Shown here: piece after piece, positions 14,193-30,888 of the stretch
Position numbering within the stretch: position 1 is the stretch's first letter
Layout of the letters: each line of letters opens with the position of its first letter
Assembly: GCA_963708075.1 (NCBI GenBank)
Contig: OY970194.1
Coordinates: forward strand, 1,760,001 to 1,824,000
Source: Sedimentisphaerales bacterium
GTDB taxonomy: Bacteria > Planctomycetota > Phycisphaerae > Sedimentisphaerales > Anaerobacaceae
Length of the DNA stretch: 64,000 nucleotides
Direction: 5' to 3'
The notes under the pieces: model-generated
What the model was told of the DNA's origin: nothing
The model's input: only the letters and a program-made list of their open reading frames with translations
Database searches by the model: none
Program-made: the position numbers and the translations under genes

Positions 14193-14349
14193 AGTCACCC
14201 CTTCATGCACAGAGTTTTTGCGAAGCCAGGATTATACGGACCCGCAGGCTGCAATTCAAAGGAATCTCTGCCGCGATCATATCTGTTCTCCCGCCTTCTT
14301 TGCGACCCTCGTGCGGCAACGATCTCGCGCCGCCATCCGCGTGGTTCGG

Positions 14350-16152
14350 TTACGGAGCCTTCAGGAACTGATCGAGTTCTTCGTACTGGAGCCAGAGCTT
14401 CTGGTTGAGGGCACTCAGTACGCCGAGCTCGCCGCGGGAGCGGACCCGGCCGGCATAGGTCTGGAAGAGCTGCTCGATTGGAGCGGCTTGGAATTCAGAC
14501 AGAGCGGCTTTCTTCTCGGCCGATAGTCGCGATGGGTCGATCTTCCCAGTCAGCCAGCGGTCCTTCAGTGTGTAGGCGGGCTCGAGCTTTTGGCCGACTT
14601 CGTCGAGCAGGAGCGTGAATTGCAGGTTTGCCGCCAGCCAGTCCAGATTGCCTCGATGGCGGGCGTCCTCTGCCTGTGCTCGGAGAGACTCGACGGTCGA
14701 GAGCAGGTCCATAAGACGGCTTCTGAGCCCTGCGTCGATCCGGCCCCAGCGGGGATTGTAAGGGAAGTACTCCGGAGATTCCGGGCCGGCAAACAAGCCC
14801 TCCCGGTCAATGCGTGCCAGGATCGGCGCCAGCGTGGTTCCGGCGCGCTGGCCGAACTGAGCCGTGCAGTCCTGCTGATAGATCGCCTCGACCGTCGCCG
14901 GGCTGTTGGGCTCACGCGCGAAGCGGGCGAAGGTATCCAGGTTCAGCCGGGTCTCCTCGGTGCGCCAGTGAATCGCGACGACCCCATCCAGCTTCTGTTC
15001 GCGTGCCAGCTTGACGTGCTCTCGCATCCGGGCCACTCGCGGCTGGAGATGCCAGAGCTGTTGGTCACCTTCCAGCCAGGGAATCGCCCAAACGGGGCGG
15101 TTTCTGGCAATCCGGGCTAGGAACGCCGGCTGTGGAGACAAGCCCTGATTCGGATTCAGGCACGTGAACACAATGTCCTTCGGCAGCACCTTGTCCAGGC
15201 CGAGCAGGATGTCCGGCAGTTGCGTCCCGCCGCCCCAGCCGCCGATAGCGACCTTGACGTTCGGCGACTTCTCGCGGATGTACGAATACGCCTGGCGAAT
15301 ATACGCAAGGGACCAGACGCCCGTGAATCCGGTACCTTCGTTGCCTGTCTCTTCGAAGAGAGGTGCTTCCTGGGCGTACAGCTTCCGGAACTCGGCGGAC
15401 AGCTCAGGGCGCCCCACGTACATGGTGTGCTCGTGAAGCCACAGCCAGATCCAGTCGATGCCAGGGTAGGCCCGGAGGATGTCGTCGATGGTGGCCCGCA
15501 GGATTTCGATAGAGGCTGGGTGGGTGGGGTCGGGCAGCATCGCCCCGCGAATCCAGGAGTCCGGCGGGACGATCGACGCGAACTCGGGCGGGTGAATCCC
15601 GAATTCGAAGCCCATCGCCATCTGAATGCCGCGCTCGTGGGCCATCGCCAGCACCCGCCGCATCAATTCCTGGGCCCGCCGGTACCGATCCTCATTGTCC
15701 CGAGCCAGCACAGCGCATCTCGCGCCGAACGCCTCTGCTCCTTCCGGCATGGGGAATACCTTGCCCGTTCCGAAGGCAAAGTCCCGCACCCTGAGAGGCC
15801 GATACCCCCACCGGGCCGTCAATGACGTGTCAAATCCGGCGGCAGGCACAACGTCGCGGTACTCGATGCGAATCATCGGCTCGACATAGGGCGCGTATCG
15901 CTCCGCCCCGCCGGTATAGCAATGAAACCCAACGAAATTGAGCCCAAGCTCCTTGAGCCGGTCAAGGTACCGCTCATAATCTCCTTCATCCCAAGCCGTA
16001 GGCCCCGAGAGGAAATTATGCCACGGCAGCGTCCCGCGAAGTGCAAAACCCGCATCTTCCGCTGCCCTTACCTGCCCGCTCAGCGCAGGCACATCTATGA
16101 CAATGGCAAAACACGCTACGAATAGTCTCGTCACAAATCTGGTGCCTTCCAT
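14350..16152 (-). CDS. Exported hypothetical protein, probable TIM-barrel glycoside-hydrolase-like
   Basis: Signal peptide; LRGTLPWHNF...DYERYLDRL..LGLN pattern; lies among carbohydrate genes; family not assignable. Confidence 0.55.
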   Translation of the reverse strand: MEGTRFVTRLFVACFAIVIDVPALSGQVRAAEDAGFALRGTLPWHNFLSGPTAWDEGDYERYLDRLKELGLNFVGFHCYTGGAERYAPYVEPMIRIEYRDVVPAAGFDTSLTARWGYRPLRVRDFAFGTGKVFPMPEGAEAFGARCAVLARDNEDRYRRAQELMRRVLAMAHERGIQMAMGFEFGIHPPEFASIVPPDSWIRGAMLPDPTHPASIEILRATIDDILRAYPGIDWIWLWLHEHTMYVGRPELSAEFRKLYAQEAPLFEETGNEGTGFTGVWSLAYIRQAYSYIREKSPNVKVAIGGWGGGTQLPDILLGLDKVLPKDIVFTCLNPNQGLSPQPAFLARIARNRPVWAIPWLEGDQQLWHLQPRVARMREHVKLAREQKLDGVVAIHWRTEETRLNLDTFARFAREPNSPATVEAIYQQDCTAQFGQRAGTTLAPILARIDREGLFAGPESPEYFPYNPRWGRIDAGLRSRLMDLLSTVESLRAQAEDARHRGNLDWLAANLQFTLLLDEVGQKLEPAYTLKDRWLTGKIDPSRLSAEKKAALSEFQAAPIEQLFQTYAGRVRSRGELGVLSALNQKLWLQYEELDQFLKAP

Positions 16153-16219
16153 GACATCCTCCAGACAATGAATCGAGAATCAACGATAGTCCGTTTGGCG
16201 GCTCTTCCTTGTGTGCCTG

Positions 16220-17779
16220 TCACGCCGTACCGCTGTAACATTGCCACTCGATTTTGCCGAGCTTCTTGAGGGCGTAGCCGATCTCACGAAGATAGTCGCC
16301 GTAGATGATCTGCGTGTGGAATCCCTCCATCTCGGCCATGAGCCGGCGCCAGTCGCCATCGATGGCGATCTCCATCTGCGACCGGCAAGCGGGGTAGGCG
16401 GGCGATTCGACGATGGTCCCGCGAAAGCCCTGCCACTTGGTGCATCGAAGGTTCGGAATCACGACGGTGACCGTCTGGCCTTTCGTGTACTCGACCCGGC
16501 AGGCGGCCCCGTAGTCGGATTCGAAGTGGGTCATGATCGTCGCCGGCTCGTAGTCCCTGCCGTTCATTTTCCGCGGGGCCGCACAGTGTGCGACGGTGAA
16601 CAGGCCGTCGTGCGGGAAGTGCGAGTTGCAGACGAACGTCGGCCGGCCGGCAATCCACCGCATCAGGACTCCGGGGAACGTGTGCGACAGATCGGTATGA
16701 CAATACGCCGTATAGCCTGCATCATTGGCCAGACTGAGCACCAGGCATGGCGGCGTGTCCAGCATCTCGATCACCTGCCCGCCCATGCATCGCGCAAAGC
16801 CGAAGTTCGAGGCCCCTGTCTCCGCCAGCAACTGCTCGCACACACCCAATGCCAGGCAGGAGTTGACGACGAACTTCCGCTGCGTTTGCAGCGTGACGTT
16901 GGGCGTCTTGAGCAACTCCTCCGCGCGCCGCTCGGCATTCTCTACGAGCTTCGGATCATTGCGGGCCTTGGTCAATCGCTCGGCGAACTGCTGCTCCGTG
17001 ATGCTCTCAATCCGGTAGTCCCACACCTCCTTGGCATGGACGGGGCCGTTGGCCTGTGCCGGTTCGCTGTACGCGATCAAGCCGCCGATAGCCAGCATCT
17101 TCGTCCCCTTGGAATTAGCCAGTCCATAGAGGGCGCGCAGCCGCCAGAGCAGTTGGCCGTAGTCATCGACGACGATATCCTGCACGTCCGCGCTGGGCAC
17201 AACGAATGTGTCGCCATTCTGCCGCAGGAAGCGCCAATGGGCAATTTCGTACCAAAGGTAGAACGGCCCGGACTTGTGCCGAATGAACATGATCATCGAG
17301 GCTTTGGAGGCGGCCACCGCATTGACGATTTCAGTCCCACCCGATGCCGCGTACAGGACGATCGCGTCCGCATCGGTCCCGGCGACCTTCTTGCCCTCCT
17401 CCTCGCTTCGTACGCTGACCAGCGGCAGCACCTCTATCGGGAACTCCGCTCCATCCACCAGCTTTGCCAATTCGTCCTTGATGCGGCCGATCTCGGCCGC
17501 GACATCGCTCTCAGTGCTCAGTCCGCCGTAGCCCCGCCAGCTCGTCTTCTCCTGCCGCTGTGCCAGGCTGTACATCAGCACCGGCTGCACGCGAACGGCC
17601 CGCCCCTTCGGCAAAGCCTGTCCCCCGGCTGCGGCTCCGCCTGATGCAGTCTTCCGCTTCGTCGATTCTCCGCCGCTAAGTCCCGCAACTGCCGCCACCG
17701 CTCCCAGCCCGCCTAAAAATCCCCGCCGGCTGATTCCTGCATCACTACTGCTCACACTCCCTGGATTCTCGCTACACAT
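16220..17779 (-). CDS. Tat-signal L-fucose/L-arabinose isomerase-like protein (paralog A)
   Basis: ISRRGFL Tat motif; PCL..SL.ND.G, AHC..P, THFESDYGA, CRSQ and GFH motifs shared with 56578..58157. Confidence 0.75.
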   Translation of the reverse strand: MCSENPGSVSSSDAGISRRGFLGGLGAVAAVAGLSGGESTKRKTASGGAAAGGQALPKGRAVRVQPVLMYSLAQRQEKTSWRGYGGLSTESDVAAEIGRIKDELAKLVDGAEFPIEVLPLVSVRSEEEGKKVAGTDADAIVLYAASGGTEIVNAVAASKASMIMFIRHKSGPFYLWYEIAHWRFLRQNGDTFVVPSADVQDIVVDDYGQLLWRLRALYGLANSKGTKMLAIGGLIAYSEPAQANGPVHAKEVWDYRIESITEQQFAERLTKARNDPKLVENAERRAEELLKTPNVTLQTQRKFVVNSCLALGVCEQLLAETGASNFGFARCMGGQVIEMLDTPPCLVLSLANDAGYTAYCHTDLSHTFPGVLMRWIAGRPTFVCNSHFPHDGLFTVAHCAAPRKMNGRDYEPATIMTHFESDYGAACRVEYTKGQTVTVVIPNLRCTKWQGFRGTIVESPAYPACRSQMEIAIDGDWRRLMAEMEGFHTQIIYGDYLREIGYALKKLGKIEWQCYSGTA

Positions 17780-17895
17780 GGTGGTCTCTCCAATCTGAAT
17801 AATCTGCCTGAAGTGCAAACGCGGGGATCCGACCCCGCCGTCGCAGAGCCAACAGGGCCGACATTCGTGCTGCTCCAGTCAATTCCTGTTATCGT

Positions 17896-20712
17896 TTAGA
17901 GCCTATTCGCTGCGGCCAGGCTGGACTTGAATTCATAGGAGCCGGGCTGCAATTCCAGCGTTAACTGACCAGGCTGAGCGGAAAGTGGCGTCAAGCCCTT
18001 AGCCTGTGTGAGCGGCTGGTTGCTTTCGGTGACGGTCTTTTCATCGGCCGTCGGCAGGTACAGCGTGGCCGTCGTGTTCGGGGGGACGGTGACATTCAGG
18101 GTCAGGAGCCCTTTGCCGTCGATGCTCCAGTTGCTTGTGATTCGGCCGTAGATGCAGTCATGGTGGGCTTTCACCCATTTGAGGGAGGGGTCGTCCACCA
18201 CACCTGGCTTGATGACAAAACGCTTGAAGCCGGGGGTCTGCGGGTCGGTCTTGATGCCGGCCAGGCCCTCGATGAACCAGGTGCCGATGTACAGGTACGA
18301 GCTGTGGCAGAGGGAGTTGTCCATATCCCACGATTCGTACATCGCCGTGGCGCCGCTGCGGAGCATATCACCCCAGCCGGGATAGGTGTCCTTGTTCGCC
18401 ATCGCAAAGAGCAGGTCCTGGCGGTCCAGAGCGAGCAGCGTCTTGTAGAGGAACGCGCCGCCCGTGATGCCGGCGTGGATGTGACCCTTGCGGCGGATCA
18501 CGATTTCCTCTTCGAGCCGCTTCTCCACAGCCGGGCGGATGTCCTGCGGCGGAAGGTTCACGAGAAGCGCGATGGCGAGGTATGCCTGGAAGCCATTGAC
18601 ATAACTGCTCTCGGCCGGGATGAAGAACTCCTGATGCACGGCCTTGCGGACCTCGTCGGCGCGGGCACGGTACTTGTCGCCATCAGCCTTCTTGCCGATC
18701 AGGTCAGCAATCGTCGCGGCCGTCTGAAGGTTGAAGATCCAATAGCAGTTGTTATAGAACAGGGTCTCACGTGTATCCCCGTTGACACCTTTGGCGCCCG
18801 GCCAGAGCCAATCGCCGAGGAAGTCCCACTCACCGCCCCACCGTCGCAGGATGTTGTCCTTGGCTTTGGTTTCGAGGAAGGCCAGCCAGCGCTGGATCGT
18901 CGGGAAGTTGTCTTCGAGGATGCGGGTATCGCCGTAACGCTCGTAGATTTCCCAGGGCAGCGTGATGCAGTAGCCGCTCCAGCCGGGCCCGCCGCCGCCC
19001 CAGTACGTCGGGGCCGTGTAGGGCAGGTTGCCGCTTTCGATGGTGTCCTGGACCGCCGCTTTCTCCGCGGTGCCCCAGGCGGCACTGCCGCCCTGCACGT
19101 CGCGCCAATCCTGGCTCCACTTCGTATAGAACGCCCCGAGACCGTAGTTGTTCAGGCCGCACTCCGTGGTCGCGTGCGCGTCGCCGCCATAGCCCATCCG
19201 CTCGCGGTGCGGGCAATCGACGACGTAGCCGCCGAGGCTGAGATCCTCGAACGTCCACAGGGTTGTGTCATAGATCTTGTTCAGCAGTTCGTTCGAGCAT
19301 TCGAAATCCGCTGCACGGGCGTAGTCGGTCCGCACGAGCCAGGCACGCATGTCCTCCACGGCGGGCTTATATTTGAGTCCCTCGACGGTGACCCATCGGC
19401 CAGTGAAATAGTTGAACCGGTTGCGAAACGTCCCTTTGCCCGAGGGTCCGACGATGTACTGGCTGCGCAGCCGGTGCGTCATATCCGCGCTCGGCCGCTC
19501 AGAGAACTTGAATTCGACCGTGTCGCCGGGCTGCCCGCGCAGGTTCGCTTCGAGCCAGCCGGTGACATTGACGCCGAGGTCCACGCGATAGGTGCCGGGC
19601 TTGACTTCCTCCACCGCCACAGGGCGAATCTCCTTGATCCGCCGATTCGGCTCGATCATCTCGGCGGACAGCGCAAGATTCGGCGAGTAGACGATGGCGG
19701 ACTTCCACCCGGAGTCGTCGAACTCCGCGCCGGCCCAGTTGGGGATTTCTTTGTTGGCATCGTACCGCTCACCGCCGAAGTGCATAAAGTCCCACACGCC
19801 CAGCAGCGTATTCGGGCTGGCGTACGTGCGCCACGTGTCATCCGTCACAATCCGGACTGCCTCGGCGCCGGGCACCCTGATATCCGCCTGGGCCAGGACA
19901 ATCGGCGTCTGCGGCCTGTCGTCCGTCTTATACGGCGGGAAGATCGACCAGGAGACGCCCAGCCACAACGCAATGACATTCCCGCCCTGCTTGAGCTGGT
20001 CGGTGATTTCATACGTGACGTAGCGGGCGCGCTTACGGTGGTTCGTCACCGCCGGGGCCAGCACATCGTCGCCGATGCGTTTGCCATTGACATACAACTC
20101 GTGGTAGCCGACGGAGGCCACATAGACCACCGCCTGCTCCGGCTTAGCCTTCAGATCAAACGTTTTGCGCAGCCAGGGGTCCGGCACTTTGTTGTCCGGC
20201 GGGGGAAAGCCCCTGCCCCGGCTGAAGACATCGCTCGTGCCGATCCACTTGCCCGACCAATCGGATTTCTCCAGCAATCCCATGGTCCACCGGCCCGACT
20301 TGCTCCAGGCCGATGTCCTGCCCCCCTCATCCTTGACTCGTACCTTCCAGTAGCACTCCATCCCCGAGCCGAGCGGCTTGCCGCCATAGACGACGTGGAC
20401 CGACTGGCCCGACGAGGCCATGCCGGAATCCCAGAGATCGCCCTTGTCGCCGTCCAGTAGCGTCTTGGCGCTCGCCACGAGAACCTGATAGCCTGTCTGC
20501 CCCTGGCCACGCGATTGCGGGTCCACGGCAACCAGCTTCCAACTCAGTCGCGGCTGCCGCACGTCGATCCCCAGCGGATCGGCCAGGTACTCGCAGCGCA
20601 CGTCGGCCACGGTCACAGAACATTGTCCGCTCGCCGCACTGGCACAGAGTGTGAGCAGAACGACAAAGCATACCATCCACTGCATAGGTCTGTTGATGCG
20701 AGATGCTCTCAT
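17896..20712 (-). CDS. Alpha-L-rhamnosidase (GH78 family), exported
   Basis: CEYLADPLGID..PRLSW, LWDSG, GERYDA, DCPHRERMGYGGD, GWGDML..GAT..YESW, SLCH. Confidence 0.88.
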   Translation of the reverse strand: MRASRINRPMQWMVCFVVLLTLCASAASGQCSVTVADVRCEYLADPLGIDVRQPRLSWKLVAVDPQSRGQGQTGYQVLVASAKTLLDGDKGDLWDSGMASSGQSVHVVYGGKPLGSGMECYWKVRVKDEGGRTSAWSKSGRWTMGLLEKSDWSGKWIGTSDVFSRGRGFPPPDNKVPDPWLRKTFDLKAKPEQAVVYVASVGYHELYVNGKRIGDDVLAPAVTNHRKRARYVTYEITDQLKQGGNVIALWLGVSWSIFPPYKTDDRPQTPIVLAQADIRVPGAEAVRIVTDDTWRTYASPNTLLGVWDFMHFGGERYDANKEIPNWAGAEFDDSGWKSAIVYSPNLALSAEMIEPNRRIKEIRPVAVEEVKPGTYRVDLGVNVTGWLEANLRGQPGDTVEFKFSERPSADMTHRLRSQYIVGPSGKGTFRNRFNYFTGRWVTVEGLKYKPAVEDMRAWLVRTDYARAADFECSNELLNKIYDTTLWTFEDLSLGGYVVDCPHRERMGYGGDAHATTECGLNNYGLGAFYTKWSQDWRDVQGGSAAWGTAEKAAVQDTIESGNLPYTAPTYWGGGGPGWSGYCITLPWEIYERYGDTRILEDNFPTIQRWLAFLETKAKDNILRRWGGEWDFLGDWLWPGAKGVNGDTRETLFYNNCYWIFNLQTAATIADLIGKKADGDKYRARADEVRKAVHQEFFIPAESSYVNGFQAYLAIALLVNLPPQDIRPAVEKRLEEEIVIRRKGHIHAGITGGAFLYKTLLALDRQDLLFAMANKDTYPGWGDMLRSGATAMYESWDMDNSLCHSSYLYIGTWFIEGLAGIKTDPQTPGFKRFVIKPGVVDDPSLKWVKAHHDCIYGRITSNWSIDGKGLLTLNVTVPPNTTATLYLPTADEKTVTESNQPLTQAKGLTPLSAQPGQLTLELQPGSYEFKSSLAAANRL

Positions 20713-20833
20713 GCTGGCCTCCTGAATCGGCTGATCCACGGTCCTCACGGGACCACAGCGCGCACGTCACGCTCGACCTGCGCGGACCCGGATTATAGCC
20801 GCGGTCCATGGCCGATGCTACGCAAAAACAGCC

Positions 20834-21013
20834 TTACGGCCGGCCGGGGTCCGGGCGGGACGTGAGTGGATCACCGGGGGCTTCGCATGTCGGGGTGACG
20901 GAGGGTCGCTTGATGCGGACAACGGCTCCGATGAGGACCACGCCGACCCAGACGCCGCTGGCCATGATCAGACCCGCCGCCACGACCACACCGATCATCA
21001 CAGCCGTTTCCAT
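20834..21013 (-). CDS. Small single-span membrane protein (59 aa), translationally coupled to the symporter
   Basis: TAATG overlap with the symporter stop; METAVMIGVVVAAGLIMASGVWVGVVLIGAVVRIKR... Confidence 0.55.
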   Translation of the reverse strand: METAVMIGVVVAAGLIMASGVWVGVVLIGAVVRIKRPSVTPTCEAPGDPLTSRPDPGRP

Positions 21014-22400
21014 TACTTGGACTCCATGAACAGAGCACTCAGGAAATGCCCAAGGAGGTACGCCGCCAGGGCTGCCGCCAAAGCCAGGAGAATCGGGGGA
21101 ATCTGCACGGCATCGTGCCAGATGAATTGGAAAGACAGGGCAACCGCCGCACCGGTGACCATAGATAGAATGCCTGCCAGGGGACGCGGCTTCTTGAGCC
21201 AAAGCCCGAGGACTGCCGCAGGTAGGATCGCCGGCGCCCAGACGGTGTAGCAGATCAGCAGGCCCCGTATGATACTGGGGACGGCTACCGCGGCCGCGGC
21301 CGCCAAAGCGGCAATGCCCACGGTGGCTGCGCGGCCGCATATGAGCGAGGCCCGATCCGAAATCTTCACGAACGGCCTGATAACGTCCTCCGTGAACGCC
21401 ACGGCCCCGGCGTTCAGGAGCGAGTCCAGGCTCGACATGATTACGGAGAGCAACGCCACCAGCAGTATCGCATAGCCTGCCGGCGGCGTGACTGTCTTGA
21501 CCAGTGTCAAGAGCACATCGTCCTCGCCGGTCCCGGCAGGGATGATCGCGCGCGCGACGATGCCCAGCGAGATCATGATCGTGAACCATACCATGCTGAA
21601 CAGCCCCGCCAGGACGAAACTGTTCCTCGACGCCCCGGTCGTCTGCGTTGCAAGGGCGCGGTTCGCGTAAGGCGGTATCAGGGTCTCGCCGAGAAGAAAG
21701 GCGGCTATCAGTCCGAGGATCTGCACCCAGGAGGTGGATCGAAAGCCCACTGCCGTCGCTGCTGTCAATTCGTAGCTCAGTGCAGCGGCGCCGTCGCGCA
21801 ACGGCACAAACATGATGAACAGGAGGATCACCGGCATGAGGATGGTGAACAGGGTGAACTGCAGAGCGTCCGTCATCACGCTGGCCCGGAGCCCGCCGAA
21901 GCTCGTGTACAGTGTCGTTGCAATCGCAATCAGGACGATCGCGATCCACTTGGAAATCCCGAAGGCGTCCTGCACCACGACCCCGGCGGCATTCGCCATC
22001 ACGGCGGCAAATCCCATGCAGAGGCCTACGGAGATCACGCCCGCCAGGATCTGGCACGTGCGATTGTACTTCTGGCCGATGGCGTCGCCGAGGGTGTGAC
22101 AACCGCTGAGCGACCGCAGTCGCGGCGCAATGAACAGGCCGACGAGGATGTTCTGGAGGGAGTAGGCAAGGCCGACGAACAGGAACAGCAGGCCGCTCTG
22201 GAAACCCTTGCCCGCAAAGCCGATGGAGAAGCCGGGACCCACATACGCGGCGCAGAGACTGCCGAAGATCAGGGCAAGAGGCAGGGAACGCTTCGCGAGG
22301 GAGAATTCCGCATACTCGCGGGCAGCGCGGCGCGCACGGCGACAATCCCGAGAATGATGAGATACCCAGCAACGAGCGCCACCGATGCAACCACACGCAC
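21013..22400 (-). CDS. Sodium:solute symporter (SSS family); apparent 1-nt deletion near 22330
   Basis: EFSLAKRSLP..., GPGFSIG, YTSFGGLRASVMTDALQF, SVIMSSLDSLLN; many TM segments; first TM helix (GTG 22400) lies in a different frame. Confidence 0.85.
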
Positions 22401-22440
22401 TATCCTATCGACAAATCAGACTGCCCCATCCGTGCACGCA

Positions 22441-23523
22441 CTATTTCTCGTGCCCTTCCTGAAACGTTTCCTCCGCCAACTCGCTGATCACGGTATCCAG
22501 ATCGGCTTCCGTGCGAATCCACCCGAACCGCGCATCGACGAGGAACGTGCGGTACCATTGAATGAGGTTCTTGGCGAAGTCCTCGTCCTTGCAGTAGAGT
22601 CCGAACGAGATCTCGCCCGCGTGGACGCCCGCCTTGCGGGGCATTTGGGGAAAGGCCAGCAGCACGGAGCTGCGAGACAGGAGAAACTCAAGGTCGGAAA
22701 CCGTGCTGTTGTAAATCCGCAGCCGGCCCGATTCGATCGCCTCGGCATATCGGCGGAACAGGTGCCGGGCCGCGTTGGAGAACCCCGGCACACTGAGATT
22801 CATCGCACGATGTACCCGGACATCCGGATACTCCTCGAGGATCGTGTGGAGCTGGCTGAGGTAGTCGTCCATGGGCTGCCGCTCCCCTTCGAACAGCATG
22901 CAGGTCCACAGCTCGCCGTTGCCCGTGGCGTCGAGCTGGTCCTGGAGCATATGCTTGGCGACGTCGTAGGTTTCGCGGCGGTTGCCGAGTACCTTCAACT
23001 GCCGGTCCATCAGGGCGGTGGCCCAGGGCGGCATGTCACTCGGCAGCGACTCGGGCGGGCAGACGCCCAGCCGCGTCATCAGACGCAGGAACTGCTTGTG
23101 CTCTGACCCGTAGAACCGCCGACCGACCACACTGCCAACATTTCCATTACATTCGAGACCGTACCTCTTATGGTAGCCGAACGACAGGCGATGAATCTCG
23201 AAGCCCTGTTCGACAAGCATCTTCTCCAACTCCCCGATCAGATGGACCGCCTGCTTCTCCGGGGCCTTGTCGATGGACAGGTGCACGTTCGGGCATAGCA
23301 CAACGGGCCGTTTGCCCAGGAGCTTCATCAGGGCGCCAAACTCGTTGACGGCGTCCTCCAACTCCTGCCGGGCGTCATATCGCTCGATGCAGACGAACAT
23401 CACGAGCACGTCCTTGAAGGTGACCCGCGGCTGCGCCGGTGAGATGGTGGACGGGTCGATCCGCGTGCTCGGCTCTTTGTCTTCAAAGTAACAGGAAGAA
23501 CACTGGTAACTATCCAGGATCAT
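22441..23523 (-). CDS. Fusion of an archaeal-type threonyl-tRNA synthetase editing domain (DTD-like) with a PLD/TrmB-effector-like C-terminal domain
   Basis: VLVMFVCIERYD, VVLCPNVHLS and GFEIHRLSFGYHKRYGLECNG align by eye with archaeal ThrRS N-terminal motifs VLVAFISVEKVD, VYPFAHLS and PFGYYKAFKISCKG; C-terminal fold assignment is weaker. Confidence 0.72.
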   Translation of the reverse strand: MILDSYQCSSCYFEDKEPSTRIDPSTISPAQPRVTFKDVLVMFVCIERYDARQELEDAVNEFGALMKLLGKRPVVLCPNVHLSIDKAPEKQAVHLIGELEKMLVEQGFEIHRLSFGYHKRYGLECNGNVGSVVGRRFYGSEHKQFLRLMTRLGVCPPESLPSDMPPWATALMDRQLKVLGNRRETYDVAKHMLQDQLDATGNGELWTCMLFEGERQPMDDYLSQLHTILEEYPDVRVHRAMNLSVPGFSNAARHLFRRYAEAIESGRLRIYNSTVSDLEFLLSRSSVLLAFPQMPRKAGVHAGEISFGLYCKDEDFAKNLIQWYRTFLVDARFGWIRTEADLDTVISELAEETFQEGHEK

Positions 23524-23544
23524 ATCGTTACGTCGATTCTCTCC

Positions 23545-23853
23545 CTACTGCTGGTTTACCTGGCTTCGGCTGTGTTCCCGCGTTGACGCCTTCGCCTTCT
23601 TCGAGCGAGAGACAATCGCAGCATCAACGCGGGAGATAAAAAGGCCCACATCCGGCGTCACGACGTTGTCCCCAAACCCCGCGCCGTTCATCAGCCGCAC
23701 CACCTCCGTGGCCTCCCAGAAGTCCGGAGATTCGCTGATGCGCTTGGCCTCCTCGCGAGTCAGCGACTTCAGGAAGGTGGGCAGCCCGCCGTCACGAAGC
23801 GAAGCGGCGTAATCCGCCAGTAGCTCCTGGATTTCTCTGTCTGCGTTCGACAT
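23545..23853 (-). CDS. Small soluble hypothetical protein (102 aa), possible anti-sigma/partner
   Basis: MSNADREIQELLADY... preceded by AAGGAG; directly downstream of an ECF sigma. Confidence 0.65.
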   Translation of the reverse strand: MSNADREIQELLADYAASLRDGGLPTFLKSLTREEAKRISESPDFWEATEVVRLMNGAGFGDNVVTPDVGLFISRVDAAIVSRSKKAKASTREHSRSQVNQQ

Positions 23854-23912
23854 CGGTAACTGCTCCTTTACGACCCGTGCAAACTGCACCAGGCAATCTT
23901 GCGAGAAGGCGA

Positions 23913-24485
23913 TCAGCCTTCTTCGCAGTACTCCTGCAACATTCGCCGCAATTTCAAAACCGTCCGAAATTCCAGCATCTTCACCGCGCCGACCGTCGTT
24001 CCCAACTGGGTGGCGATCGCCCGGTTCGACATCCCGGCCATCCACAGCTCCATCGCCTTGCGCTCCCGGGCCTTGAGCTTGCCGAGCATCCGGTGCAGGA
24101 TCTGCTTGAGCTCGGTCTGCGAGAGCAGGTCGCACAGGCCCAGTTCCGGCGCCACAAGGTTCTGCATATCGTTCGCGGACAGGTACGAGCTGCGATTCAT
24201 CCGCCGGTACACCTCGCGGAGGCGCTTCCGCATGTAGTATAGATACACCGTTCGCAGAAGCTGCCTTTCGCTGTCGATGGCCCGCAGATGGTCCGGGTTT
24301 TCCCAGATATCCGCGTACACATCCTCCAGCACGTCCTCGCACTCGACCTCGTTACCGAGATAGCGATGCAGATGCCGTATGAAGATGCCAAAGGTCGATC
24401 TGACAAAAGGCTCCATCGCCCGACGTCGTGACTCGGCGTCGGTGGATGTGAGCTCCTTCAAAGCGTTTCGCAGCGCTTTATCCAT
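23913..24485 (-). CDS. Divergent ECF-type sigma-70 factor
   Basis: Region-2-like ECEDVLEDVYADIW; region-4 HTH LKARERKAMEL..AGMSNRAIATQLGTTVGAVK. Confidence 0.82.
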   Translation of the reverse strand: MDKALRNALKELTSTDAESRRRAMEPFVRSTFGIFIRHLHRYLGNEVECEDVLEDVYADIWENPDHLRAIDSERQLLRTVYLYYMRKRLREVYRRMNRSSYLSANDMQNLVAPELGLCDLLSQTELKQILHRMLGKLKARERKAMELWMAGMSNRAIATQLGTTVGAVKMLEFRTVLKLRRMLQEYCEEG

Positions 24486-24603
24486 ACCGGTTACAGCATT
24501 CCCCGATTCTCACTGATTTTCGGCCTCTCCACCGGCAGGAAGACGGGATCAATCCCGCTGCCGTCTGCGGCGGAAGGTGCGAGGTCCGACCCCGCAAATC
24601 TCC

Positions 24604-24632
24604 ATTCTATCGTAGAGATATGAGGAATTCAA
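24604..24632 (-). promoter_or_regulatory. Putative sigma70 promoter of the ECF/editing-domain cluster
   Basis: Minus strand TTGAAT-N17-TAGAAT about 120 nt upstream of the sigma start. Confidence 0.45.
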
Positions 24633-24755
24633 CCGGTAAACGCCCATGCCTAATGCCGACAAAAGCATCCTCAGAGACACTTCTGAGGATATGACCGACC
24701 CTCTGTCAGATACGAATCAACCAGATCACGTCGAAACCATCTCCTCACTTGACCC

Positions 24756-25223
24756 TCAGAATCCATATGCCGGCCAGAGCTCCTCTTCCGTCGGCAGATG
24801 GTCGTAGAACTCACCGCGCGTGCCGATGTAGCCAATCCCTTGTCTTCGCAGCCGCACCCGGCTGATCGAGCCGTTGCTATTGGTGATGTCCACCGTCACG
24901 TAATCCATTTCCTGCCGCATGTGGACGCGCTCCGTCGGCGTGTGGCTCTTGTCCTCTTCGTTGCCGATCATGTATCCGGCCGCTCCTCCGATCGCCGCGC
25001 CGAGAATTGTGGCTCCCGCAGTGCCGCCAATCACCTGGCCAAGCCCGGCTCCCGCCAGCACTCCTACCGCCGCCCCGGTTTGCGCGGCGGTTCGGCAACC
25101 TGCCGACATCAGCAAACCGGCCGCCATCCCTGCCAGGACGATAGTCCCGGCTCTGCCCGTCGCTACGCCGGACCTTTCTGTGTCCGAAAATGACTCGACG
25201 GCATCGGATGGCTTAGAGCTCAT
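24756..25223 (-). CDS. Glycine-zipper lipoprotein
   Basis: Lipobox-like SAGC followed by TGAAVGVLAGAGLGQVIGG...GAAIGGAAGYMIGNE. Confidence 0.78.
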   Translation of the reverse strand: MSSKPSDAVESFSDTERSGVATGRAGTIVLAGMAAGLLMSAGCRTAAQTGAAVGVLAGAGLGQVIGGTAGATILGAAIGGAAGYMIGNEEDKSHTPTERVHMRQEMDYVTVDITNSNGSISRVRLRRQGIGYIGTRGEFYDHLPTEEELWPAYGF

Positions 25224-28107
25224 CATCGTCCTCTTTGTTGACCGGTGCTTGCTCGGTGGCCTGCGTCGTGGCGGCGCCTGCGCTCAGTTGCGTGGCCGAG
25301 TCCTTCTTCGAAACGTCCAGCAAATCCTTTGCTCCAGTATCCGGAACCTTTTGAGTATCCGGCGTGCTCTCAAGGGAGGATGCTTCAGGGGCGGTCGATG
25401 ATGGAGTCGCTGTGGCGGGGTCTACCTGGGTCGCCGATGACTCCTGAGCCTTGGCGCCCGGCGCAGCTTGCGACTCGGAGCCGGCCTTATCCTTCGGCCC
25501 GGCTTCCTTCTCGAGTTTGTCCACAAGTCTGAGCAGCACAGCCACCGCCTCGGTGTTCTTCGCATCCTGGCCCGCCTTCTCCAGAGGCTCGCGGGCATAG
25601 CCTGTCTCTCCGGTGCCCAGCAGATGGTAACCGAGCAGGAGCTGCAGGTCGGCGTTGTCGCCGGACTCATCCTGCTTGTTCAGCAGCTCCTCAATCTGTT
25701 TGAACAGCACATCGTCATTGGCATACAGGCCACGAGGATAGAAGACGCCTTCCTTCTCCTTCTCGGGCGGAAGCTTCTTGAGGGCCTCTCTCAGCACCTC
25801 CGCGGCCTTGGAGTACTGCTTGTCGGCAAACAAGGCCTGGGCATATGCGAACGGAAGGATCATGTCTTCCGGCGACAGCTCCTTCGCCGTGGCGAACTTC
25901 TCGGCCGCTGTGGCGTAATCGCCAGACTCGAAGCTCTTGACGCCTTCCTCGAACCTTGTATCCGCCTGTGTCTGCGGCGCCGGCTCCGCCGCTCGCTGTG
26001 CCAGTTTCTCACGGACATCGGCATATCCGCTGTCGTCCGTGCTCTGATAGGTGGTCGCGGAACCATCGTCATTGTAATAGTTGTACGTGTAGTAGTTGTT
26101 CGTCTCTCCCGCGACCTCGGTGGCAACGGGGTAGTATCCGTACCACACGTAGGGATGATAGCCATACCAGTAGTACCGCATATACGGGTAGTCATAGGGC
26201 CAGTATCCACCCAGGCTGATGAACACGTACTTGCGATGGTAGTACGGGTACATATAGTCGAACGAGAAATGCGAACCGAAGTGGTAGCCGATCGTGAAGT
26301 AGTACGACGGCCAAATGACCCGGTGACACAGCCGATGATGCATGTCATAGTAACTATAGAGGTGATGGTAATGATGCGAGATCAGGTCCGGCCGGTCATA
26401 GTACGACGCGTGCAGGTAGGGCCGCCGGTAGCTGTAGTCGAAAGTTGTCGGCCGAAGCGTCCGCTCCGCCAGATTCGTGTCGAGGCTTCTCCTCGCAACC
26501 AGATGGTCGTTCAGCCGGGAGCCGAATTGCTGCCGCCGGGCCGTGGCATCCGCCTGCTGTCTCTGCGGATCCAGAGCCACTTTTCCGCGATCACCCCTCT
26601 GACTGATCACTTCGGCCCTGCGACTGGTTACTCGGTTCTGAAGCTCCGAATTCGTTTGTGCGCCGCGGACGGGTTGAGTCGTCGATAGCGTCGGCATCCG
26701 GGTCTGCGAGCCGGTGGATTCGGCCACCTGGCTCTTCTGCGTCTGCTGACCTGTCCGTCGCGCCTGCATCCGCGAAAGCACTGACTTCCTGTCGGTTGCG
26801 GTCCGCTCCGTGGGACTTGTCGTCGTTTTGGGCGAGACGCCCTGCTCTGTCCCTGCCTTCGGCGCGACGATTTGTCGCGACGACGGCGACGGTGCGGATG
26901 TGGATTTCTCCGCCGGGGCCTTCACCTCACCCGTGGTCGATCCATTCCTCGCACCGACGCGGCCCAGGAGCGACCGTCTGTCGGTCGCACTGCCCTCAGA
27001 TGGAGTCTTTGTCGTCTGAAGCGTGCTCTGCCGCGGCTCCAGACTCTGTTTGGACGTCGTCTTCAGGTCTGCGATTCGTCGCGACTGCTGAGGCTGAGTG
27101 GGCGTGGACGCGGGCTTCTCTGCCACCGGGCTCTGCGATTGCTTCGTTACAGATCCGTTCCTGGTGCTAAGACGGCTCAACAGTGAGCGTCTGTCGCCGC
27201 CGGTGTTTGTGGGCGTGCTCTGAACAACAGGGCCCCGCGATGATGGTGGCGGTGTCACCGTCTTTGGCGCACTGGGCGTACTTGCCGAACCCGACATCGG
27301 TTGCCTCGGCTGCACGGTGCTCTGCTGCCGTGCTGCCATGCGATCCACTACAGAGCTGCGCGTCGTGCCGCTATTCATAGATGTATCCGGCGCGGAGGAT
27401 CGCGGCGTCGCCAGGCTCCGCGTGCTGCCGCTCCGGCTGCCAATCGAGCTGGAAATACTCTGATCAGGCGACCTGGAGAGGCCTCCGGATGAGGACGACT
27501 CACTTCGTGGTGCGCTGAATACGCTTTCCGACCGTGGCTGGCTGGAGGGCGCCCATCTGGTGCTGAAATCCCGTGCCGACTCGCGGCTTGGCGCCGGCGC
27601 GGCAGCCGACGGCGCGGACCTGCTCGAAAACGGGCTCGAACGCATCGTGGCCGGCGGGCTGCTCGGCGTCACCGACGGTCGCGAAGGCGTGATCGAAGGT
27701 GGTGCACTCGGTGTAAACGACGGTCTCGAAGGGGCTATCGAACGCGGCGCACTAGGCGTAAACGATGGCCGCGAAGGAGCCATAGAACGTGGCGCACTGG
27801 GTGTAAACGATGGTCTGGAAGGCGCCGCTGCCGGCGGAGGGCTGAACGATGGTCTGGAGGGGGCCATTGCGGGCGATCTGCCGGAGCTGAACGGGGAGCC
27901 TTGGCTGCGAGATGATCCAAAACTTGGACTTGGGCTCGGACTGGGCCTCACAGCCTCGCGCCTTGCTCCCACACTCTGCAGCGCCGCGCTTCGCTCCGAA
28001 GCGGCCCGTGCCAGACGAGAGCCCGATGACCCGATCAACAGGGCCGCCATGAGCGCCACAGACGTTACGGCTGCTCTGCGGTTTTTTCTCTCACCTGCGA
28101 CAAACAT
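25213..28107 (-). CDS. Large exported low-complexity protein (Ser/Pro/Arg-rich, Tyr/His-rich segment, C-terminal TPR)
   Basis: Signal-like N-terminus after AAGGAG; long S/P/T/R disordered region; Y/H-rich block; TPR-like FEEGVKSFESGDYATAAEKF...YAQALFADKQY. Confidence 0.75.
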   Translation of the reverse strand: MFVAGERKNRRAAVTSVALMAALLIGSSGSRLARAASERSAALQSVGARREAVRPSPSPSPSFGSSRSQGSPFSSGRSPAMAPSRPSFSPPPAAAPSRPSFTPSAPRSMAPSRPSFTPSAPRSIAPSRPSFTPSAPPSITPSRPSVTPSSPPATMRSSPFSSRSAPSAAAPAPSRESARDFSTRWAPSSQPRSESVFSAPRSESSSSGGLSRSPDQSISSSIGSRSGSTRSLATPRSSAPDTSMNSGTTRSSVVDRMAARQQSTVQPRQPMSGSASTPSAPKTVTPPPSSRGPVVQSTPTNTGGDRRSLLSRLSTRNGSVTKQSQSPVAEKPASTPTQPQQSRRIADLKTTSKQSLEPRQSTLQTTKTPSEGSATDRRSLLGRVGARNGSTTGEVKAPAEKSTSAPSPSSRQIVAPKAGTEQGVSPKTTTSPTERTATDRKSVLSRMQARRTGQQTQKSQVAESTGSQTRMPTLSTTQPVRGAQTNSELQNRVTSRRAEVISQRGDRGKVALDPQRQQADATARRQQFGSRLNDHLVARRSLDTNLAERTLRPTTFDYSYRRPYLHASYYDRPDLISHHYHHLYSYYDMHHRLCHRVIWPSYYFTIGYHFGSHFSFDYMYPYYHRKYVFISLGGYWPYDYPYMRYYWYGYHPYVWYGYYPVATEVAGETNNYYTYNYYNDDGSATTYQSTDDSGYADVREKLAQRAAEPAPQTQADTRFEEGVKSFESGDYATAAEKFATAKELSPEDMILPFAYAQALFADKQYSKAAEVLREALKKLPPEKEKEGVFYPRGLYANDDVLFKQIEELLNKQDESGDNADLQLLLGYHLLGTGETGYAREPLEKAGQDAKNTEAVAVLLRLVDKLEKEAGPKDKAGSESQAAPGAKAQESSATQVDPATATPSSTAPEASSLESTPDTQKVPDTGAKDLLDVSKKDSATQLSAGAATTQATEQAPVNKEDDDEL
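27652..27864 (-). repeat. Intragenic tandem repeat, about five copies of an approximately 45-bp unit (APSRPSFTPSAPRS-like)
   Basis: PSRPSFSP / PSRPSFTPSAPRSM / PSRPSFTPSAPRSI / PSRPSFTPSAPPSI / PSRPSVTPSSPP. Confidence 0.8.
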
Positions 28108-28586
28108 GGTTGTCTCCTTTCCTTCCTCCGACGGCACAAGATTCGGCCAGCCCGTTCTGCCGCCGGCGCCCCACACGTCTTATCGTGGGATTGCGATACA
28201 GGATAATACTTCAAAATACTATAGGCGGCCACTATAAATATACGTGGGAAAAGGGTTTACGGTTTGCAGAAACCTTGTCGAAAGCCCGCAAGCCACCCCT
28301 TTTCACAATCATTACAGCCATCTGCACGCCCCTGACTAACATATCGTCGTGTGCGCTATCTTTTCTACTCTAATAAGGCTCGGCGACTAAGCATGGTAAC
28401 AGGAAAAACGAGGTTTCTTCGACTACCTGCAACTTCCTTTCGGACCATTGGCCACGCATCCAGAACTTGTGCAGGCGGCGGCCCCGACGGGACTTATCAT
28501 GTATCTCGGCGTAGTCAGTCGGGCAGGGGCGAACGGTTCCGTGTGCCCGACGTACCTTTTTGATGGCGTTGGGATAAGATTTTGTC

Positions 28587-28615
28587 TTGACATGGGGGGA
28601 GGCCGCCGGTATTAA
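28587..28615 (+). promoter_or_regulatory. Putative sigma70 promoter of the rpmF-plsX-fab operon
   Basis: TTGACA (28587-28592)-N17-TATTAA (28610-28615). Confidence 0.5.
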
Positions 28616-28687
28616 AGGTAGTTTTATACACAGCGTCAGACGAGCACGCTCTGCGAGTGATTAGCAGATGGACTGGAGTACCGAACA

Positions 28688-28876
28688 ATGTTACCAATGA
28701 AAAAAATGAGCCGGAGTGCCGTCAAAATGCGACGGTCACACCATCGACTCAAACCGATCAACTACTCGGTCTGCCCGAAGTGCGATCAGGCAAAGTTGCC
28801 CCATGCGGCATGCGGCAACTGCGGGTATGTACATCCCGGGCTCACCCTGAAACTCGGCAAGGAGGAAACCACGTAG
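28688..28876 (+). CDS. rpmF: 50S ribosomal protein L32
   Basis: P.KK.SRS...RRSH, CPKC...LPHAACGNCGY; canonical position before plsX. Confidence 0.92.
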   Translation: MLPMKKMSRSAVKMRRSHHRLKPINYSVCPKCDQAKLPHAACGNCGYVHPGLTLKLGKEETT

Positions 28877-28878
28877 GC

Positions 28879-29892
28879 ATGCGTATCGCTGTGGATGCCA
28901 TGGGAGGGGACCACGCACCCGACGAAATCATTGTAGGAGCGTTGGAGGCGTTGTCCCGGCTCGATCAGGATGACAGGATCATTCTGGTTGGGCCACAGGA
29001 GCTGTTGGAGAAGAAACTGGCCGATCTGAAATACGACCGGGACCGTGTCAGCATTGCTGATGCGCCGGACGTAATCGCCATGGACGAGAAGCCCATTGAC
29101 AGTCTGCGCCAAAAACCCCGAAGTTCGATTGGGATTCTGGCGAAACTGGCGAAACTGGATCAGGCAGATGCAGTCATCTCAGCGGGCAACACCGGGGCAT
29201 GCGTGGCGGCATTCCAAATGCGAATGCGTACCCTGCCTGGTGTAAATCGCCCCGGCATCGCCGTCGTTTTCCCGACCACGAACGGCCCCGTGACTATTTG
29301 CGATGTGGGAGCAAATATTGCCTGTAAGCCAATCAACCTGTATCAGTACGGGCTGATGGCAAGCATCTACTCGCGGCATTTCCTCAAGGTCCAGAACCCG
29401 CGGGTCGGGCTGATGAGCATTGGAGAGGAAGAGGCCAAGGGCAATGAGATCGTCAAGCGTTCGCGGGAGCTGATGCGCGGCGACTCGCGATTGAATTTCA
29501 TCGGGAACATCGAGGGAAGGGACATCTTCCGCGGAGTCTGCGACGTGGTGGTCTGTGAGGGGTTCGTCGGGAATGTCATCCTGAAGCTCACAGAGGGTGC
29601 GGTGGAGGGCTTGTTCCGAGCCATCAAGCAGGAGTTGAGCCCCTGGTTGGGGCTGATCTTCAAACGGACCATCATGCGGGTCTATCAGAAACACGACTAT
29701 CATGAATACGGGGGGGCTCCCCTGCTGGGCATCAACGGCACGGCCCTGATCTGCCATGGGGCCAGCCGGGCGCGCACAATCAGAAACGCCGTGGTCACCG
29801 CCAAGACCTGCCACACGCAAGGAATCAATGAAAAGATCATGGAGTGTCTCTCGGAAGCTTGCGTAAGGACTTCGGATGCACAAGGAATTTGA
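28879..29892 (+). CDS. plsX: Phosphate acyltransferase
   Basis: MRIAVDAMGGDHAP, SAGNTGA, DVGAN, GNIEGRD, CEGFVGN, GGAPLLG...CHG. Confidence 0.96.
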   Translation: MRIAVDAMGGDHAPDEIIVGALEALSRLDQDDRIILVGPQELLEKKLADLKYDRDRVSIADAPDVIAMDEKPIDSLRQKPRSSIGILAKLAKLDQADAVISAGNTGACVAAFQMRMRTLPGVNRPGIAVVFPTTNGPVTICDVGANIACKPINLYQYGLMASIYSRHFLKVQNPRVGLMSIGEEEAKGNEIVKRSRELMRGDSRLNFIGNIEGRDIFRGVCDVVVCEGFVGNVILKLTEGAVEGLFRAIKQELSPWLGLIFKRTIMRVYQKHDYHEYGGAPLLGINGTALICHGASRARTIRNAVVTAKTCHTQGINEKIMECLSEACVRTSDAQGI

Positions 29893-30888
29893 GGATTGCC
29901 CCCTCGCGAACCGCGCCGTGATCACCGGGTGCGGTTCTTTTGTTCCATCGGCGATATTGTCCAATGAAGATCTTGCCCGCAGGGTGGATACTTCGGACGA
30001 ATGGATCACTACCCGGACAGGGATCAAGTCCAGGCACATCACGACGGATGGCGAAACGACCGCCTACCTGGCTACCGAGGCGGCCAGGCGGGCCCTGGCC
30101 TACGCAGGGCTTAGCGGCGAAGATCTCGATCTGATTACCGTGGCGACGATCACCCCGGAAATGGTCTTTCCCTCCACGGCATGCTTCGTTCAGCAGGCGC
30201 TCGGGGCGAAGAACGCGTGGGTCTTCGATCTGGCGGCCGCCTGCAGCGGGTTTGTCTATTCCCTGCACCTGGTCCAGCAGCTCATTGAGAACGGGCGGCT
30301 CAACAATGCCCTGGTGATTGGGGCCGAGACGCTCACGAAAATCACCAACTGGAAGGACCGGACCAGTTGCATCCTGTTCGGCGACGGGGCCGGTGCGATC
30401 GTCCTGCAGCGCAAGGACAATGCCGGCCGAGGTATCATCTACAGTACGCTGGGCGCGGACGGAACTTATTGGGAGTCGCTGAGCTGCCGGGCCCACGGCT
30501 CGCGCCACCCGGTCAGTCGGCCGCTGAACGACCCAGACATGGCCTTCATGCAGATTAAAGGCAGAGAAGTATACCAGCAGGCGGTGCGGCGGATCGTGGA
30601 GGCTGTCACTGACTGCATGGCGCACTGCGGCTTGACCATCGACGATGTCGCCATGGTCATCTCGCACCAGATGAATGCCCGGATCATCGAGTCAGCCGCC
30701 AAGAGGTTGGAACTGCCCCCGGAGAAGGTGTTCGTCAATATTCAGAACTACGGCAATACGTCCGCCGCTTCCGTGCCCATCGCGTTCGATGAATGCATGC
30801 GGCAAGGCAAGCTCAAGAAGGGCGATATCGTGATCTTCGTGGCGTTCGGCGCCGGTGTCACCTGGGCGCAAACATCATCGAGATTTAG
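29876..30888 (+). CDS. fabH: 3-oxoacyl-ACP synthase III; apparent 1-nt deletion near 30865 just before the stop
   Basis: DTSDEWI..RTGI, AACSGF, LFGDGAGA, HQMN.RI, YGNTSAAS, FGAG.TW; adding one G gives TWGANIIEI-stop at 30886-30888. Confidence 0.94.

Follow-up and report, generated by a model that had tools for sequence, protein, structure and literature searches.

The control of an extracytoplasmic function (ECF) sigma factor by an anti-sigma factor is an already known logic, exemplified by the pairs RpoE-RseA, SigE-ChrR, SigK-RskA and SigW-RsiW, and it is with these that we compare a five-gene cassette from a Sedimentisphaerales bacterium (GenBank assembly GCA_963708075.1, contig OY970194.1, positions 1,760,001 to 1,824,000 of the forward strand; this stretch of 64,000 nucleotides (nt) is referred to here as the window). 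The cassette encodes an ECF-type sigma factor, a small protein designated orf2, a fusion protein with a threonyl-tRNA synthetase (ThrRS) editing domain, a Na+:solute symporter (SSS) and a small membrane protein. As in the described pairs, the sigma gene lies next to that of a small helical partner, here modelled in contact with sigma regions 2 and 4, and, as with ECF/class I anti-sigma pairs in general, there is a predicted bipartite promoter, probable autoregulation in many lineages and a predicted set of envelope-type targets. Unlike in those pairs, orf2 has no Pfam match, zinc motif, membrane segment or sensor domain, and the cassette continues with the editing-fold fusion and the SSS carrier.

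The fusion itself recalls other systems. Its N-terminal part has the same fold as the archaeal ThrRS editing domain and ThrRS-2 (PF08915; 4RRF, 2HL1 and 4RR6), but it is bacterial and carries a TrmB-like partner instead of a synthetase core or an anticodon-binding domain. The C-terminal part has the fold of the effector domain of TrmB and TrmBL2 (PF11495; 2F5T and 5BPD), a catalytically dead phospholipase D (PLD) fold. The canavanyl-tRNA deacylase CtdA is also a stand-alone editing domain in a non-translational pathway under signal-dependent control, but, going by the sections covered of its description, it has a PheRS B3/B4 fold not homologous to PF08915, is controlled by a riboswitch and involves no sigma factor; no transporter is mentioned with it in the main text searched (PMC10018355). 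In the literature searched, which included part of that on ECF groups, we found neither this anti-sigma family nor a fusion of a D-aminoacyl-tRNA deacylase (DTD)-like with a TrmB-like domain, its linkage to an SSS carrier or the promoter motif reported below.

For soluble anti-sigma factors that lack zinc, it is frequently uncertain how a signal arrives; the present locus supplies a partner candidate together with a predicted promoter and a set of targets. We propose, at a probability of about 0.45, that the cassette is an ECF/anti-sigma switch in which the editing-fold fusion serves as the sensor and is fed by the symporter. That it contains a sigma/anti-sigma pair with a regulon of GT(T/G)AC-N16-GCCTT promoters appears highly likely to us. 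If the editing fold does act as a sensor, a tRNA-proofreading module would have been reused for transcriptional control, which we did not find in the literature searched.

Conservation of the cassette

A first-pass annotation, made from the letters of the window, had described five co-oriented, tightly spaced genes as a candidate system. The arrangement was borne out by the coordinates: all five genes are on the minus strand, with intergenic gaps of 59, 21 and 40 nt, and the last pair overlaps via TAATG (Table 1). Homology searches and neighbourhood comparison likewise support a conserved multi-gene unit. Of 143 genome loci, the best 80 were used to count linkage, with denominators restricted to the loci that had enough flanking DNA. 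Beside the fusion gene, orf2 was found in 80/80 loci, the sigma gene in 77/77 and the symporter gene in 79/79, and a small open reading frame (ORF) with a conserved SGxWV lay 3' of the symporter in 64/66. The flanking genes were variable: a tetratricopeptide repeat (TPR) protein occurred in 48/58 loci, a lipoprotein in 30/63 and GH78 in 17/61, so that the unit is independent of its GH78 neighbour, as had been supposed. Co-occurrence of the cassette genes is far above chance. The linked loci belong to kin within one family, by vertical inheritance, and the counts therefore show a stable unit and not independent events.

The fusion was present in 23/23 other genomes of the genus, in 150/276 genomes of the family and in 40 of its 91 genera, and in 0/400 genomes sampled from the rest of the Planctomycetota; a comparison with phage sequences gave no match. 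For orf2 the figure was 148/276 family genomes, from the same 40 genera, and both genes were found together in 146 genomes. The fusion is usually the most conserved gene of the cassette, with 66-88% identity in the loci compared. The five genes are a conserved unit of limited reach, found within one Sedimentisphaerales family, most of which is uncultured; beyond it there are three divergent singleton proteins.

Divergent fusions with 42-45% identity lie on short contigs (P0126, P0128 and P0131). A record labelled Candidatus Aegiribacteria (L137) has the cassette at family-level identity; the simplest explanation is that the contig was mis-binned.

The sigma factor and its predicted anti-sigma factor

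The sigma factor consists of regions 2 and 4 only, in about 190 amino acids (aa), as do ECF (sigma70 group 4) factors. It scored 55.1 bits against TIGR02937 (cut-off 42.9) and passed the cut-off of the Pfam r4_2 model; the region 2 match was weak (E 0.002). It is single-copy in its own genome (E<=1e-4), and no such gene context appears among the ECF groups described in the text and the part of the supplement covered of PMC7826278. For orf2 there was no Pfam match at E<=1, only chance-level matches in NCBIfam and no match to known ASD/ZAS families, and its alignment has neither HxxxCxxC nor a long hydrophobic run. It is predicted to be soluble, with a basic, variable C-terminal tail. Searches of the ESM Atlas with orf2 and with the C-terminal domain of the fusion gave leads under 0.9 only.

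The association of the sigma factor with a small partner, also put forward in the first-pass annotation, is supported by the predicted complex, whose score was 0.74 (best control, 0.11). Of 157 solved complexes 116 reached the mark applied, as did 2 of 215 mismatched pairs; this calibration is only rough here, as in-house alignments fed the complex model. Separate runs shared at least 90% of contacts, and the predicted local distance difference test (pLDDT) value of the partner was at least 79. In the modelled interface, orf2 residues 8-13 and 44-52 lie on sigma residues 169-180, and sigma 21-62 and orf2 69-87 are also involved. Class I anti-sigma domains bind sigma4 through helix 1 and sigma2 through helix 4 (PMC7406223, in the sections covered), and the contacts in our model fit this pattern, so the score may reflect likeness to solved pairs. 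As modelled, orf2 is probably a soluble anti-sigma factor, from a family that Pfam does not match.

Promoters and a predicted envelope regulon

A sigma70-like promoter had been reported in front of the cassette. In the window alone its single occurrence equals the chance expectation of 1.0, but the claim is sustained by its conservation, since TTG-N-17-TAnAAT occurs in 65/71 homologous upstream regions, compared with a shuffle mean of 1.2 and a maximum of 5. Just downstream of this promoter, and before the sigma gene, 28/71 loci carry the bipartite motif GT(T/G)AC-N16-GCCTT; a spacer of 17 was found in 2 regions and other spacers in 0, and the spacer varies in sequence at a fixed length. We also considered this element as an RNA hairpin and rejected it: because the folds are inconsistent and a spacer of variable sequence keeps its length, we prefer to read it as a promoter. 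The part examined of the ECF reclassification supplement does not contain the motif.

Scanned with the motif pattern, the window genome has 14 occurrences with a spacer of 16 and 0-4 with other spacer lengths; a matrix derived from other genomes gave 14 sites above 20 bits with the spacer of 16 and 0-2 with other lengths. Judged by eye, 11 of these 14 sites lie in front of genes that encode an export signal or an outer-membrane barrel. For 2 of the 14 no target is evident, and some may be intragenic. One target is the TPR gene of the window; the others include an outer-membrane protein barrel, small lipoproteins, lipoproteins of the ankyrin and TPR types, a glycoside hydrolase exported by twin-arginine translocation (Tat) and a second ECF; LpoB is preceded by the motif too, at a score below the 20-bit threshold. 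No translation families were seen among the scanned motif targets. Apparent counterparts of the targets carry the motif in other genera.

The motif was also found upstream of orphan anti-sigma copies, in 8/8 of those with full upstream DNA (L237, L238, L241 and L246-L250; 4 exact and 4 with one mismatch; shuffle mean 0.18), four of the eight being from one genus; a ninth copy ended at a contig edge. These paralogues with their own motif are probably a form of negative feedback. A second pair of sigma and orf2 genes, with no fusion adjacent, has a one-mismatch motif upstream (L239:3029-3909). Across the family, the ratio of motifs to a reversed control was 877/502 (1.75) in cassette genomes and 177/322 (0.55) in genera without the cassette, and size-matched genomes had 5.0 motifs per genome with the cassette versus 2.0 without it. 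From these sequence comparisons, GT(T/G)AC-N16-GCCTT is probably an ECF promoter that defines an envelope regulon, and its correlation with the cassette points to the cassette sigma factor as the one that reads it.

A 5'-proximal hairpin (24570-24600), of varying sequence, lies right 3' of the sigma70 promoter in the window's genus group only, and occupies the place that the ECF-type motif has in other genera.

The fusion protein

The proposal that the third gene encodes a tRNA-editing-domain fusion proved sound: PF08915 matched residues 28-128 (E 1.9e-17, 64 bits, cut-off 30.2), and in a structure model made from a 53-sequence alignment (pLDDT 82) residues 1-140 superposed on 4rrf with Z 19.4 and a root-mean-square deviation (rmsd) of 1.8 over 134 aligned residues, a DTD-like fold. 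In the numbering of the Pyrococcus abyssi (P. abyssi) enzyme, P78, H81, F115, G116 and K119 of the fusion correspond to Pro80, His83, Phe117, Gly118 and Lys121, and all five are invariant in 100/100 fusion sequences. Seven pocket residues are listed for that enzyme; mutating the His83 and Lys121 positions impairs editing, and archaeal enzymes can do without Tyr120 and Glu134 in vitro (PMC4491819, in the sections covered). Of the seven, the fusion keeps Pro80, His83 and Lys121. The fusion differs from the archaeal domain in that Tyr120 is replaced by His (100/100), Glu134 by Val, Ile or Thr (100/100), Phe81 by Asn (98/100) and Ala82 by Val, with His130 also changed. Given that Tyr120 and Glu134 are dispensable, the fusion may still have deacylase activity. 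The pocket segments are its best conserved parts (0.93).

The protein scored far below the cut-offs of NF011500 (44 versus 362) and NF003068, and its architecture is not that of ThrRS-2: the C-terminal domain is TrmB/PLD-like, there is no anticodon-binding domain, and the editing motifs of the cellular ThrRS are intact. Residues 175-339 matched TrmB (2f5t) with Z 12.5 and rmsd 3.0 over 133 aligned residues, and TrmB-family structures as a group with Z 12.5 and 12.2, rmsd 3.0-3.1, 133-139 aligned residues and 9-11% identity, the fold score of the active PLD nuclease NucT being nearly equal (Z 11.6). As in TrmB, the HKD motif (HxKxxxxD) is absent from the consensus of this domain. Unlike in TrmB, a DNA-binding regulator, there is no N-terminal helix-turn-helix, the N-terminal domain being DTD-like. 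A search of 1.84 billion representatives returned 18 matches, two of them repeat-protein noise; the 18 included a fusion to TIR, three divergent fusions, and proteins with a membrane anchor that matched TrmB weakly. Distant relatives of the domain give weak PF11495 matches.

The TrmB-like domain is also found behind a CAP12/Pycsar-type TIR and behind two hydrophobic segments (P0135, P0139 and P0140), architectures that resemble signal-sensing defence effectors. Stand-alone PF08915 matches occur in 39/400 Planctomycetota. Proteins of this kind (L218-L236), of about 140 aa, have S-F-x-H and FG[YW]FC; the ten that were extracted, with Cys or Asn in place of Lys121 and Lys in place of Glu134, form a type distinct from the fusion. 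A planctomycete protein of 634 aa (L217:7-1908) has a canonical archaeal-type editing N-terminus and is probably a whole archaeal-type ThrRS.

The symporter and the small membrane protein

The symporter matched PF00474 (E 2.3e-30, 106 bits, cut-off 22.8), and its SSLDS aligns with the SSL of SGLT1 and vSGLT, in which we take the hydroxyl pair to be the Na2 site. Scored from the main frame with the first helix left out, it reached no SSS subfamily cut-off (PanF 73 versus 328, PutP 64 versus 516, TIGR00813 120 versus 184). Among profiles of solved structures the sugar carriers SGLT1 and vSGLT ranked first (E ~1e-21) and a choline carrier next, all of them distant. Transmembrane helix 1 (TM1) reads ATYVGPGFSIG, versus AANISAEQFIG in vSGLT, and the TM1 Asn and Gln and TM2 Glu, which presumably bind galactose in vSGLT, are not kept.

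The symporter frame is broken by one missing base, a frameshift overlooked in the first-pass annotation. The extra base is present in short-read contigs (two runs of one study), mostly at least 99% identical to the window, and the frame is open across this stretch in 103/103 records of homologous loci whose symporter match is nearly full, some genomes being counted twice. The frameshift is an assembly error, and the symporter gene is regarded here as intact. One nucleotide is likewise missing from the essential thrS (G000:C1:2530352-2532013, L065) in this single-contig assembly, so other frameshifts of this genome are likely to be errors as well.

The small ORF that follows has no Pfam match. 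In coupling a symporter to a short hydrophobic ORF the cassette is like ActP-YjcH, an SSS carrier with a small membrane partner gene; a difference is that the small ORF here comes after the carrier.

A proposed switch and its alternatives

Of the two roles put forward for the editing fold in the first-pass annotation, proofreading and sensing, we favour that of a sensor; the TrmB-like domain, the promoter motif and the envelope regulon did not figure there. In the switch that we propose, the cassette operon would be transcribed by the housekeeping sigma factor, as the conservation of its promoter suggests, and the 102-aa soluble anti-sigma factor would be wedged between sigma regions 2 and 4, holding the sigma factor off. 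Since orf2 lacks a sensor domain as well as a zinc motif and a membrane anchor, the signal would have to come via a partner, and the DTD-like/TrmB-like fusion is the candidate for giving it. The TrmB-like domain may bind a small solute, taken up through the symporter with its small membrane subunit; alternatively or in addition, the editing fold may bind an aminoacyl-adenosine end, for example that of a charged or mischarged tRNA. The sigma factor, once freed, would read the GT(T/G)AC-N16-GCCTT promoters, with exported and envelope proteins, a second ECF and, in many lineages, the operon itself as output, and the extra anti-sigma copies would provide negative feedback. One form of this scheme, in which the fusion is an anti-anti-sigma factor or co-sensor that reads the aminoacylated or mischarged tRNA end, is gated by a solute bound to the TrmB-like domain and so releases the ECF sigma factor, we regard as unlikely; if it held, the status of translation substrates would be coupled directly to ECF sigma release and an envelope regulon.

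Several points weigh against the switch. The place of the fusion as the link to the sigma/anti-sigma pair is one that we infer; its editing residues H81 and K119 are kept in 100/100 sequences, so it may simply be an enzyme, and in one genome the second sigma and orf2 pair (L239) has no adjoining fusion. The high complex score may stem from similarity to solved sigma/anti-sigma structures, on top of its rough calibration. The motif is absent before the window's own sigma gene (best score 2.1), and its strict pattern is absent from 43/71 sigma upstream regions; 14 of the 40 cassette genera show no motif excess, cassette genomes are larger and relatives are non-independent, so that another ECF could own the motif. 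Finally, the best solved-structure matches of the symporter are sugar carriers.

The fusion could instead be an active trans-editing deacylase, acting on Ser-tRNA-Thr, Gly-tRNA or a non-protein amino acid, and an output of the operon rather than a sensor. It would then be a stress backup for the Cys-dependent editing site of bacterial ThrRS; the TrmB-like domain would be an allosteric switch, and the symporter would bring in the amino acid or analogue. The invariance of five pocket residues, the dispensability in archaeal enzymes of two that are changed and the strong conservation of the pocket segments all speak for this. So do three further observations, taken from the sections covered of the papers cited: U73, found in all tRNA-Thr matches examined, is thought to suit the archaeal editing domain (PMC11295145); oxidation of ThrRS C182 leads to Ser-tRNA-Thr (PMC4041444); and stand-alone editors tied to toxic-analogue pathways exist, as CtdA illustrates (PMC10018355). 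However, U73 is equally present in genomes without the cassette (12/12 tRNA-Thr) and was rejected as a discriminator. The ThrRS editing motifs (HxxxH and DLCRGPH) are intact in 5/5 cassette genomes checked and, apart from an assembly error, in the window genome, and DTD is present in 5/5 genomes with the cassette and 5/5 without it; compensation by the fusion for a missing ThrRS editing site or DTD is therefore rejected, and a proofreading backup, although not obviously needed, may still serve under stress. The earlier suggestion that the module proofreads mischarged tRNA is weakened by these findings, although the invariant editing His and Lys stand in its favour. The change of Phe81 to Asn, the missing anticodon-binding domain and the envelope-directed regulon also argue against a deacylase, which would leave the anti-sigma factor without a sensor, and we think this explanation somewhat unlikely. 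If it were correct, the fusion would be an archaeal-type editor in a bacterium, with a ligand-binding domain and under stress-sigma control.

It is also conceivable, and in our view quite unlikely, that one transcript carries two separate units, a sigma/anti-sigma pair controlled in some other way, such as proteolysis, and a solute uptake module, made up of the fusion, the symporter and the small protein, that is no more than a member of the regulon. The sigma and orf2 pair and the orphan orf2 copies without a neighbouring fusion are consistent with this, as is the motif before the operon in 28/71 loci, and vertical inheritance makes the synteny counts non-independent. Against it, the order of the four genes is unbroken in all loci with room, across 40 genera, while the TPR, lipoprotein and GH78 flanks vary, and the fusion is present in every genus that has orf2. 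A module in which the symporter imports sugar for GH78 and the TrmB-like domain senses it would explain the ranking of SGLT1 and vSGLT, the binding of sugars by TrmB domains (stated in the title of 2f5t) and the Tat-exported glycoside hydrolase among the targets. We find it very improbable: no SSS subfamily cut-off was reached, and with a TM1 unlike that of sugar carriers and GH78 an unstable neighbour, a sugar link is unlikely.

Other features of the locus

Coordinates of the cassette and its surroundings are collected in Table 1. A search of 14000-30000 against Rfam gave one chance match and no riboswitch.

Table 1. Features of the cassette and neighbouring DNA (window positions)
Feature	Position	Strand	Basis or remark
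sigma70-type promoter, TTGAAT-17-TAGAAT	24604..24632	-	pattern in 65/71 homologous upstream regions
ECF-type sigma factor, 190 aa	23913..24485	-	passes the TIGR02937 and Pfam region 4 cut-offs
orf2, 102 aa, probable soluble zinc-free anti-sigma factor	23545..23853	-	no Pfam match; alignment; complex model
Fusion, 360 aa: ThrRS editing (DTD-like) domain 1-140 and TrmB-effector-like PLD-fold domain ~175-339	22441..23523	-	PF08915; structure comparison
TrmB-effector-like domain of the fusion, no HKD	22507..23001	-	R239, N242 and E279 invariant
Na+:solute symporter (SSS), ~462 aa	21013..22400	-	PF00474; one base lost in the assembly at 22328
Small hydrophobic membrane protein, 59 aa from ATG	20834..21013	-	overlaps symporter stop; conserved SGxWV
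Weak terminator-like hairpin at cassette end	20829..20846	-	3 found versus 3.2 expected by chance
GTTAC-N16-GCCTT motif, probable promoter of the cassette sigma factor, upstream of TPR gene	28375..28400	-	motif scan
Large TPR protein, N-terminal hydrophobic leader	25213..28107	-	linked in 48/58 loci; probable regulon member, not core
Gly-zipper lipoprotein-like gene	24756..25226	-	variable linkage, 30/63 loci

In the TPR protein, the N-terminal region is very long and rich in Ser, Pro and Arg, and the middle is rich in Tyr and His.

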